From Caldisphaera sp. (GTDB taxonomy: Archaea; Thermoproteota; Thermoprotei_A; Sulfolobales; Acidilobaceae): a DNA stretch of 64,000 nucleotides. Of this stretch, positions 3,270 to 53,392 are shown one piece after another. Numbering within the stretch: the first letter of the stretch is position 1; the number at the start of each line of letters is the position of its first letter. The position numbers and the translations under genes were made by a program. The stretch lies in assembly GCA_049971805.1 (NCBI GenBank), contig JBMFKU010000002.1:32001-96000 (forward strand). Direction: 5' to 3'. The notes under the pieces were generated by a model. That model did not search any database and was not told the DNA's origin. It saw only the letters and a list, made by a program, of their open reading frames with translations.

Positions 3270-3375
3270 GCCGGGGTGGCCGAGTGGTCCAAGGCGGCGG
3301 GCTGCAGTAGCAGTGAGGTTAGCCCATCGTTGTTAGAGACCCGTTATTTCCCGGGTTCGAATCCCGGCCCCGGCT
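3270..3375 (+). tRNA. tRNA-Cys(GCA) with 31-nt intron at canonical 37/38 (3308-3338)
   Basis: Acceptor GCCGGGG/CCCCGGC, U73, anticodon stem GCGGG-CT GCA G|intron|A-CCCGT, T-loop GTTCGAATC. Confidence 0.95.
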
Positions 3376-12442: not shown

Positions 12443-12479
12443 GATAACAGATTAAAATTTTCTAAGAAACAAAATATAT

Positions 12480-12539
12480 GGACCGATGAAGGCTGATGGG
12501 CAGTCTGAAAGGTGGTGATATATTGCAGTTCTGAGGTCC
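12480..12539 (+). ncRNA. Box C/D methylation guide sRNA
   Basis: Terminal stem GGACC/GGTCC; C GATGAAG 12485, D' CTGA 12505, C' GGTGATA 12514, D CTGA 12531; 60 nt, intergenic, GC-rich. Confidence 0.88.
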
Positions 12540-13256
12540 ATTAATAAACAGCTAATACTTGCTACATCAGACATACATTCTCCTATATATTTTGATTTAT
12601 TTTTCACATCTTTAAATAAAATTGATGAGATTCCATGCATTTTTCTATTAGCAGGAGACATAATAAATAAAGGAAAAATTGAAAATGCAAGGCCCGTTTT
12701 CGATTTAATCAATAATAAATTTCCAGAGGTGAAGGTAATAGCAGTATTTGGTAATGATGAATATAGCGAGATATGGGATGAGCTTAGAAAGAAATACAGT
12801 AATGTAACATGGCTTTTAGATGAGTATATTGTAGTTGAATGTAATAAAACAAAGATAGCAATTGTAGGTACACCAGGGGCTATTGATAAACCTACAAAAT
12901 GGCAATTAACTCATATAAATGGCATTCAGAATTATTACCAAAATAGAGTAAATAAGATCAAAGAACTTTTAATAGAAGCTAAAGGAAAATCTGATAAAGT
13001 AATCCTGCTATCTCATTATGGTCTATCCAGCCTAACTTTAAAAGGAGAAAAACCTTTTGCATATAGTCAATTATATAGTTCGAAAATGGAAAAAATTATA
13101 TCGGAAATTAGACCTGATGTAGCAATACATGGACATGCTCATAAAGGAAAAAAGTTTGCGATATTAAATAATGTTCCTATATATAATGTAGCCATACCTT
13201 TAGTAAAAGAAGTTGTTAAAATTAAATTTAAAAAGACACTTATGGATTTAATTTAA
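12540..13256 (+). CDS. Calcineurin-like metallophosphoesterase; N-terminus extends upstream of ORF-track start, probable ATT start
   Basis: In-frame upstream of 12729: INKQLILATSDIHSP...LLAGDII (motifs I and II); then GNDE, SHY, HGHAH. Confidence 0.85.
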   Translation: MNKQLILATSDIHSPIYFDLFFTSLNKIDEIPCIFLLAGDIINKGKIENARPVFDLINNKFPEVKVIAVFGNDEYSEIWDELRKKYSNVTWLLDEYIVVECNKTKIAIVGTPGAIDKPTKWQLTHINGIQNYYQNRVNKIKELLIEAKGKSDKVILLSHYGLSSLTLKGEKPFAYSQLYSSKMEKIISEIRPDVAIHGHAHKGKKFAILNNVPIYNVAIPLVKEVVKIKFKKTLMDLI

Positions 13257-53328: not shown

Positions 53329-53392
53329 GCCCCAATGATAGGCATTCAAATTCAGAGTAAAACTATGATGAGCAACGGGTCTAACGAGGGGC
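53329..53392 (+). ncRNA. Box C/D methylation guide sRNA
   Basis: Terminal stem GCCCC/GGGGC; C AATGATA 53334, D' CAGA 53353, C' ATGATGA 53365, D ACGA 53384; 12-nt guides; D guide complementary to tRNA anticodon stem. Confidence 0.82.

Follow-up and report, generated by a model that had tools for sequence, protein, structure and literature searches.

On the forward strand of the window, at positions 12480-12539, lies a canonical box C/D sRNA of 60 nt with two 12-nt guides, and upstream of it lies a tRNA-Cys(GCA) gene interrupted by an intron (Table 1). The window is a stretch of 64,000 nt, positions 32001-96000 of contig C2, from an archaeal assembly of 1.52 Mb, 31% G+C and 66 contigs. The closest named relatives of the fibrillarin encoded in this assembly belong to Caldisphaera MAGs, with amino-acid identity of 83-85%.

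Table 1. Features of the tRNA-Cys and sRNA genes (window coordinates)
Feature	Position	Strand	Remark
tRNA-Cys(GCA) gene, 31-nt intron	3270..3375	+	aragorn -i; Rfam tRNA 49.5 bits
D-guide site	3300..3309	+	G30-G37 and intron bases 1-2; predicted 2'-O-methyl target G34 = G3304
Intron after position 37	3308..3338	+	aragorn -i
Intron element GCCCAUCG	3322..3329	+	complementary to D' guide positions 4-11, 8/8 Watson-Crick
AT-rich TATA-like box, weak	12452..12459	+	21-28 nt upstream of the sRNA, within AT-rich spacer; by eye
Terminal stem 5' strand GGACC	12480..12484	+	5 bp with 12535-12539; A-U becomes G.U in G001 and G004
Box C AUGAAGG	12486..12492	+	AUGA and G6 invariant in 7/7 genus sequences
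D' guide CUGAUGGGCAGU	12493..12504	+	G12500 = fifth base upstream of D'
Box D' CUGA	12505..12508	+	invariant in genus
Box C' GUGGUGA, degenerate	12512..12518	+	invariant in genus; placement yields 12-nt D spacer
D guide UAUAUUGCAGUU	12519..12530	+	C12526 = fifth base upstream of D
Box D CUGA	12531..12534	+	CUGA in 6/7 genus sequences
Terminal stem 3' strand GGUCC	12535..12539	+	genus alignment

Architecture and distribution of the sRNA

The ends of the sRNA are capable of forming a kink-turn, in which AUGAAGG and CUGA face each other with a 3-nt bulge and a 5-bp stem, and the internal D' and C' boxes delimit two spacers. Both guides are complementary to stable RNA, with the fifth base upstream of box D or D' opposite the predicted target. 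A single G separates the stem strand GGACC from box C, and AAG lies between boxes D' and C'. Box C' is one position off consensus, and GUGAUAU may be an alternative frame for it. The C/D architecture proposed in the initial annotation was borne out, with the sequence as described there; its boxes were re-read, since taking box C as AUGAAGG instead of in the GAUGA frame makes both spacers exactly 12 nt long. Within the genus, positions 3-11 of the D guide are invariant and positions 1, 2 and 12 vary. Changes at box C position 5 go together with changes at position 2 of box D (A-U, G.U, and G-C in G002): the box D of G002 reads CCGA and is accompanied by a compensating G in box C.

The genes of the required machinery, L7Ae, Nop5 and fibrillarin, are present in the assembly (matches to PF01248, PF01798 and PF01269 above cut-off). 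No curated C/D family of Rfam matches the sRNA at the gathering threshold; the best scores below it are those of SNORD113 (20.5 bits) and sR47 (16.3 bits), and of the 20 weak matches 18 are to C/D families. Judged from these features, the element at 12480-12539 is a genuine archaeal methylation-guide RNA.

On a separate matter, a metallophosphoesterase frame at window positions 12519-13256 is open from 12519, and the first ATG, GTG or TTG, at 12729, comes only after its DxH (SDIH) and GD motifs. Its start therefore seems to be a non-standard codon, situated just past the 3' end of the sRNA or overlapping it.

The 60-nt sRNA is kept in all six other genomes of the genus that were compared, with both flanks diverged. 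As BLAST gave no convincing match outside the genus, a covariance model (R1) was needed for more distant relatives and was built from the seven genus sequences. It matched 102 of 141 genomes at E<=1 and recovered orthologs across the order. We examined 73 sequences, namely the seven from the genus, 26 best matches and 40 further matches. The core of the D' guide, GA(U/C)GGGC, is retained by 26/26 of the best and 37/40 of the further matches, hence in 70 of the 73 sequences, and in at least ten families of the order (f1, f2, f3, f4, f5, f7, f8, f9, f10 and f13). In several genomes of family f5 (G083 contig C13, G033 C4, G043 C7 and G101 C43) the sRNA gene is located 0.9-1.4 kb from the 16S rRNA gene, and in G083, G033 and G043 it stands upstream of it on the same strand.

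Candidate targets of the two guides in ribosomal RNA

The assembly contains no rRNA, and rRNA targets consequently rest on congeners; the rRNA of G001, G003 and G005 was used. An rRNA contig of G002 (L032, C27) was set aside because it looks foreign: it differs from its genus in reading ACCGCCCGUCG and CUGCAAUGG, has a divergent 23S start, contains a partial 16S and some N, and may have been mis-binned.

The D' guide forms 11 contiguous pairs with 16S ACUGCCCGUCG in all three congeners, and the C following the G of ACUGCCCGUCG stands in the methylation register. The homologous CCGCCCGUCA of the annotated E. coli 16S rRNA starts at position 1398 of 1541 (1399 if counted from the 3' end), which makes the target the equivalent of C1402 in standard numbering. 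By this complementarity, the predicted target of the D' guide is the decoding centre of 16S rRNA. The initial annotation had pointed instead to the CCCAUCAG region of 16S rRNA, a proposal that has to be dropped: the GGCCCAUCAU site near position 245 of the congeners offers 7 contiguous pairs, with guide position 3 mismatched, against 11 at the decoding-centre site. The eukaryotic snR70 and SNORD43 are guides for the 18S counterpart of E. coli C1402, a cytidine, and so for the same nucleotide as that addressed by the D' guide; homology of the sRNA to SNORD43 is not demonstrable at the Rfam level (12.8 bits against a threshold of 45 bits).

Guide and rRNA change together at D' guide position 3, which is A opposite U in family f1 (6/6 16S sequences) and G opposite C in all 14 16S sequences from the other families. 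The f1 sequences in question (L003, L004, L005, L117, L118 and L119) all have U at the equivalent of E. coli C1400 (ACACUGCCCGUC), matched by the A of the f1 guides; C1400 is usually regarded as an invariant base. A further deviation is found in the 16S rRNA of G083 and G033 (L106 and L108), which reads CCGCCCAUCGC, with A at the equivalent of E. coli G1405; this A makes the U at D' guide position 8 Watson-Crick paired.

Several rRNA sites were also weighed as targets of the D guide. One in 23S rRNA, near position 67 (CUGCGAUAU), was rejected, as it fits in G003 only; G005 and G001 have G or A beside the target while the guide is invariant. A 16S site near position 1200 (GGCUACAAUGG) was rejected for this genus on account of an A-C mismatch at the target base. 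The corresponding GCUACAAUGG of E. coli starts at 1232. Guides of other lineages that carry U at position 5 do fit there, and those checked (G022, G043, G092 and G101) form 9-10 Watson-Crick pairs with 16S GGCUACAAUGG.

The tRNA-Cys precursor and its complementarity to both guides

The gene at 3270..3375 is the sole tRNA-Cys among the 45 tRNA calls of the assembly and is missed by ARAGORN in its default mode. A single-sequence fold of its precursor shows a relaxed splice motif only. The D guide forms 10 contiguous pairs, 7 Watson-Crick and 3 G-U, with positions 3300-3309, and C12526 stands opposite G3304; two of the three G-U pairs fall inside the anticodon stem. The initial annotation had described precisely this pairing across the exon-intron junction, which was reproduced, and its register on G34 was confirmed by the gene model. 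Its statement that splicing reduces the match was confirmed as well: spliced tRNA-Cys can form 8 pairs, and the duplex energy at 37 C changes from -12.1 kcal/mol (unspliced) to -9.0 kcal/mol (spliced). If m1G37 is introduced early, it would block one guide pair. The sequence CUGCAG/UA (here and below the stroke marks the junction) is invariant in 7/7 tRNA-Cys genes of the genus.

Pre-tRNA-Cys ranks first for the D guide among the 45 tRNA calls. The second-best match, outside the window, is pre-tRNA-Tyr(GUA) GGCUGUAG/UGAG (G000 contig C26:9624-9728), which also has G34 in register, but only 5 of its 10 pairs are Watson-Crick. When the guide was shuffled, 41 of 400 versions equalled or beat the observed run in a tRNA pool of 57 sequences and 4782 nt, from which one aragorn call with a 980-nt 'intron' was left out, and genome-wide there are many matches to the D guide as good as that to tRNA-Cys. 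On the evidence of this one genome, the match does not clearly exceed chance.

Three observations concern tRNA-Cys as such. A second box C/D-like sRNA is located at window positions 53329-53392, with D guide GCAACGGGUCUA forming 9 Watson-Crick pairs with tRNA-Cys AGACCCGUU and with C39 in register; its pairing is identical before and after splicing, and its box D would be a non-canonical ACGA. Together with the sRNA at 12480-12539 it would mirror the Cm34/Um39 pair of tRNA-Trp. In G003 and G005 (L040 and L043) tRNA-Cys shares 94-97% identity over its first 34 nt with the tRNA-Ser(CGA) of its own genome, and thus has a Ser-like D arm. In family f13 (G040 and G131; L095 and L097) tRNA-Cys carries an extra insertion of about 20 nt in the 5' strand of the anticodon stem, besides the intron at 37/38.

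Comparison across the order is more informative. tRNA-Cys was retrieved from 24/26 and 30/37 genomes searched, from which 22 and 30 full-length genes were extracted; with the seven genus genes these make 59, and all 59 have an intron of 11-38 nt after position 37. Both the sRNA D guide and a tRNA-Cys gene were available from 55 genomes, representing 43 distinct combinations (G147 was counted despite a doubtful parse of its D guide). Guide positions 3-8 pair with C32-G37 throughout, except position 3 in 2/43 combinations. Beyond the junction, guide position 10 and intron base 2 are paired in 43/43 (33 C-G, 9 U-A and 1 U.G), and guide position 11 and intron base 3 in 31/43 (C-G, U-A, G-C, A-U and U.G). 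In a permutation test of the intron part, 0 of 20000 permutations reached the observed pairing. In 46 of the 55 genomes the duplex takes in two or more nucleotides of the intron, with nucleotide 34 in register.

Individual lineages illustrate how the guide follows the intron. Introns starting with UGG face guides with CCA, UAG or UAA face UUA (G083 and G033), UGAU faces (A/G)UCA (G120 and G082), and UA faces UA in this genus. The divergent intron start AGCU of G009 is matched by AGCU in its guide, which yields 9 Watson-Crick pairs. On the junction, guides of family f13 form 9 Watson-Crick pairs, and 16S offers them no match. The genomes of genus g11 (5/5) carry the tRNA-Cys guide on a separate sRNA with unrelated D' guides; it is therefore kept for its own sake. 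Introns of family f10 pair poorly with the guide.

Guide position 5, opposite nucleotide 34, divides the order. It is U in 36 of the 55 genomes, where G34 would be wobble-paired; such guides fit tRNA-Cys only through G-U at G34 and G37, and methylation of tRNA-Cys may be absent or weak in those lineages. In this genus it is C, which gives G34 a Watson-Crick partner. Guide positions 5 and 8 show every combination of U and C (in 27, 9, 11 and 8 genomes), and the departures from the rRNA-optimal guide are those that turn G-U into G-C on tRNA-Cys. The core of the initial annotation, a trans-acting guide across the pre-tRNA-Cys junction with G34 in register and the precursor preferred, is thus supported by guide-intron covariation in 55 genomes, and the f13 guides back it too; the support comes from comparison across genomes, not from this genome alone.

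A second region of the intron is complementary to the other guide. The element GCCCAUCG is kept in 7/7 introns of the genus against a variable remainder of the intron, its one change being a C-to-U in G003. In 5 of 6 congeners the match is longer, with 9-11 Watson-Crick pairs, G002 having 8, and among the longest matches of the D' guide to an intron are 12/12 Watson-Crick pairs in G018 and 11 in G001 and G004. The intron of G121 contains an exact 11-nt copy of the 16S site. For the order as a whole, 53 distinct guide/intron combinations were tested with the first four intron bases left out: at least 9 contiguous pairs were found in 24/53, shuffling gave p<=0.01 in 26/53, and a control with the guide reversed gave 0/55. 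Its sequence, CUGCCC in f1 but otherwise CCGCCC, follows both guide and 16S rRNA. The element is present in f1, f2, f5 and f9, partly so in f4 and f7, and absent from f3, f10 and f13, whose introns are short.

Within the genus, the element is part of an intron hairpin, as its 3' strand, and the opposite 5' strand changes so as to keep pairing. Since the 5' strand does change, the hairpin alone does not explain why the element strand is fixed. RNAalifold instead paired the element with the anticodon stem, on its 5' strand; this fold was rejected as not tRNA-like, and the element fits the D' guide better. On the precursor the D site lies 5' and the D' site 3', which is the antiparallel order expected of two arms and also the 5'-to-3' order of the two 16S sites. 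The chances that the intron element serves as a docking site for the D' arm are about even.

A proposed dual role and its relation to known guides

We propose that the sRNA probably guides two methylations, yielding Cm at the C1402 equivalent of 16S rRNA and Gm34 on unspliced tRNA-Cys. It would assemble with L7Ae, Nop5 and fibrillarin, and its D' guide would direct 2'-O-methylation of the decoding-centre cytidine. The D guide would pair with the anticodon loop and the first intron bases of unspliced pre-tRNA-Cys and bring the wobble G34 opposite the fifth guide base, so that Gm34 would be made before splicing; both the methylation and its timing are predictions from the pairing. The D' guide could in addition pair with the intron copy of its 16S site, in which case one sRNP would hold the precursor with both arms, as a putative docking aid.

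An unlikely alternative is that in this genus the D guide serves a G near position 376 of 16S rRNA, in CUCUGCAAUGCG, and that its match to tRNA-Cys is a by-product. This site forms 7 Watson-Crick pairs and a terminal G-U in 3/3 congeners, and 9 pairs where the guide ends with AA (G001 and G005; the same is expected for G004, whose 16S is unassembled); moreover, the match depends on a U that only this genus has. For the guide of this genome, however, the CUCUGCAAUGCG duplex is the weaker one, with -9.4 against -12.1 kcal/mol on pre-tRNA-Cys, and other genera have at that position a C, mismatching an A that is invariant in the guide. The change from C to U at guide position 10, specific to the genus, also weakens pairing with CUCUGCAAUGCG and strengthens that with the intron A.

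It is rather improbable that the sRNP acts on pre-tRNA-Cys mainly as a chaperone or splicing timer, with G34 methylation secondary or absent. Loop and intron would then be held apart, leaving the splice motif unable to form until release; the two paired segments do include the 5' junction, and they extend to within 1-3 nt of the 3' splice site in f5 and f9. A G-U pair at the target base, as is seen with the 36 guides mentioned above, is reported to impair methylation. Yet the lineages in which the guide specialises change to C exactly the base opposite G34, a substitution that matters more for catalysis than for binding.

That the D guide is a drifting remnant of a 16S guide (for the A in GGCUACAAUGG, about E. 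coli A1235), now orphan and fitting tRNA-Cys by chance, is very improbable: most orthologs (27/55) do have guides of the CCAUUGUAG type, in which positions 5 and 8 are U, and of which the four checked on 16S pair well as described, this genus has C opposite the 16S A, and the single-genome match to tRNA-Cys is at chance level in shuffling, but the departures from the 16S optimum are non-random, being two U-to-C changes that replace G-U by G-C with G34 and G37 and recur in f1, f2, f3, f7 and f13, guide positions 9-11 track the intron and not 16S, and positions 3-11 do not drift within the genus.

The dual-role reading can be carried further to the level of the order, though tentatively, and we would give this extension a little less than an even chance. 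Pre-tRNA-Cys would mimic the two 16S sites of one double-guide sRNA, and its intron would recruit an rRNA guide with both arms. The anticodon loop with the intron start, CUGCAG/UGG, would imitate 16S CUACAAUGG, the two differences being bridged by G-U, and the intron body would copy the decoding-centre site CCGCCCGUCG. Guides could then shift along a path neutral with respect to G-U, from the rRNA-optimal CCAUUGUAG to the tRNA-optimal CCACUGCAG, for which all four intermediate states are seen. If this is true, a conserved tRNA intron gains a function, and maturation of tRNA-Cys and of 16S rRNA would be linked through competition for one sRNP.

Guides of related type are known. In Euryarchaeota, the intron of pre-tRNA-Trp is described as holding a C/D guide for Cm34 and Um39 (Clouet-d'Orval 2001; Singh 2004). 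The present system resembles it, as far as these accounts go, in that both guides act on one precursor, the methylation is linked to an intron and the wobble base is targeted. The roles are inverted, however: here the guide is a separate gene about 9 kb away (sRNA gene at 12480, tRNA gene at 3270), and the 31-nt intron is devoid of boxes and contains a target-like element. The initial annotation had drawn the parallel to tRNA-Trp, of which the link between wobble base and intron stands; the closest precedent is instead the trans-acting guide of pre-tRNA-Met. This is sR-tMet of Haloferax volcanii, described as a box C/D RNA directing Cm34 in the precursor of elongator tRNA-Met (Joardar et al. 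2011). Shared with it are the trans-acting C/D guide and the wobble position 34 of an intron-containing precursor; different are the target, here G34 of tRNA-Cys, and the other guide, which here has its own rRNA target and matches the intron. sR-tMet reportedly pairs with intron bases. The marks of such a guide found here are the junction-spanning duplex with nucleotide 34 in register and the co-evolution of guide and intron.

In Pyrococcus, sRNAs are reported to target position 34 of tRNA-Leu(CAA) and tRNA-Leu(UAA), of tRNA-Met and of tRNA-Trp, and sR47 to be active in vitro (PMC7994747, PMC3413156). C/D-guided ribose methylation of a tRNA wobble base is common to these and our sRNA, which differs from them, as they are described, in the tRNA, the purine target, the junction-spanning pairing and the dual use of its second guide; sRNAs that target tRNAs are said usually to have an orphan second guide (PMC7994747). 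In many relatives both guides fit 16S rRNA (C1402 equivalent and A at about 1235), which recalls the double-guide rRNA sRNAs described for hyperthermophiles (PMC4644070, PMC6009581).

Guides of this kind could have escaped earlier surveys. According to their available descriptions, the Pyrobaculum survey scanned mature tRNAs only (Lui 2018, PMC6009581), and a survey of rRNA in seven species required at least 9 consecutive Watson-Crick pairs and has sparse predictions in helix 44 (Dennis 2015, PMC4644070); under such conditions, guides that span a junction or are interrupted by G-U would be missed. In an LC-MS survey, tRNA-Cys of Sulfolobales is stated to have resisted isolation (PMC7668247). 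No report of a guide for Gm34 of tRNA-Cys was found in the literature searched, which included the accessible text of PMC7668247, PMC6009581, PMC4644070, PMC7994747, PMC6313347 and PMC13520502, and supplementary tables of the sRNA surveys may list the family. The new element is the stretch of the tRNA-Cys intron complementary to the D' guide of the same sRNA, which suggests two-armed docking.

Why archaeal tRNA genes keep their introns is a long-standing question, to which the tRNA-Trp intron, acting as a guide, provides one clear answer. The tRNA-Cys intron, present in every gene analysed, co-evolves at its first bases with a separate guide, and four families also copy the rRNA target into it. 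Such guides are missed by searches that consider only mature tRNAs or only Watson-Crick runs free of interruption. As a natural series, the orthologs trace how a single guide moves between an rRNA and a tRNA target by way of G-U intermediates. The proposal predicts an unreported modification, Gm34 in archaeal tRNA-Cys, and the function of the intron becomes directly testable in genetically tractable relatives.
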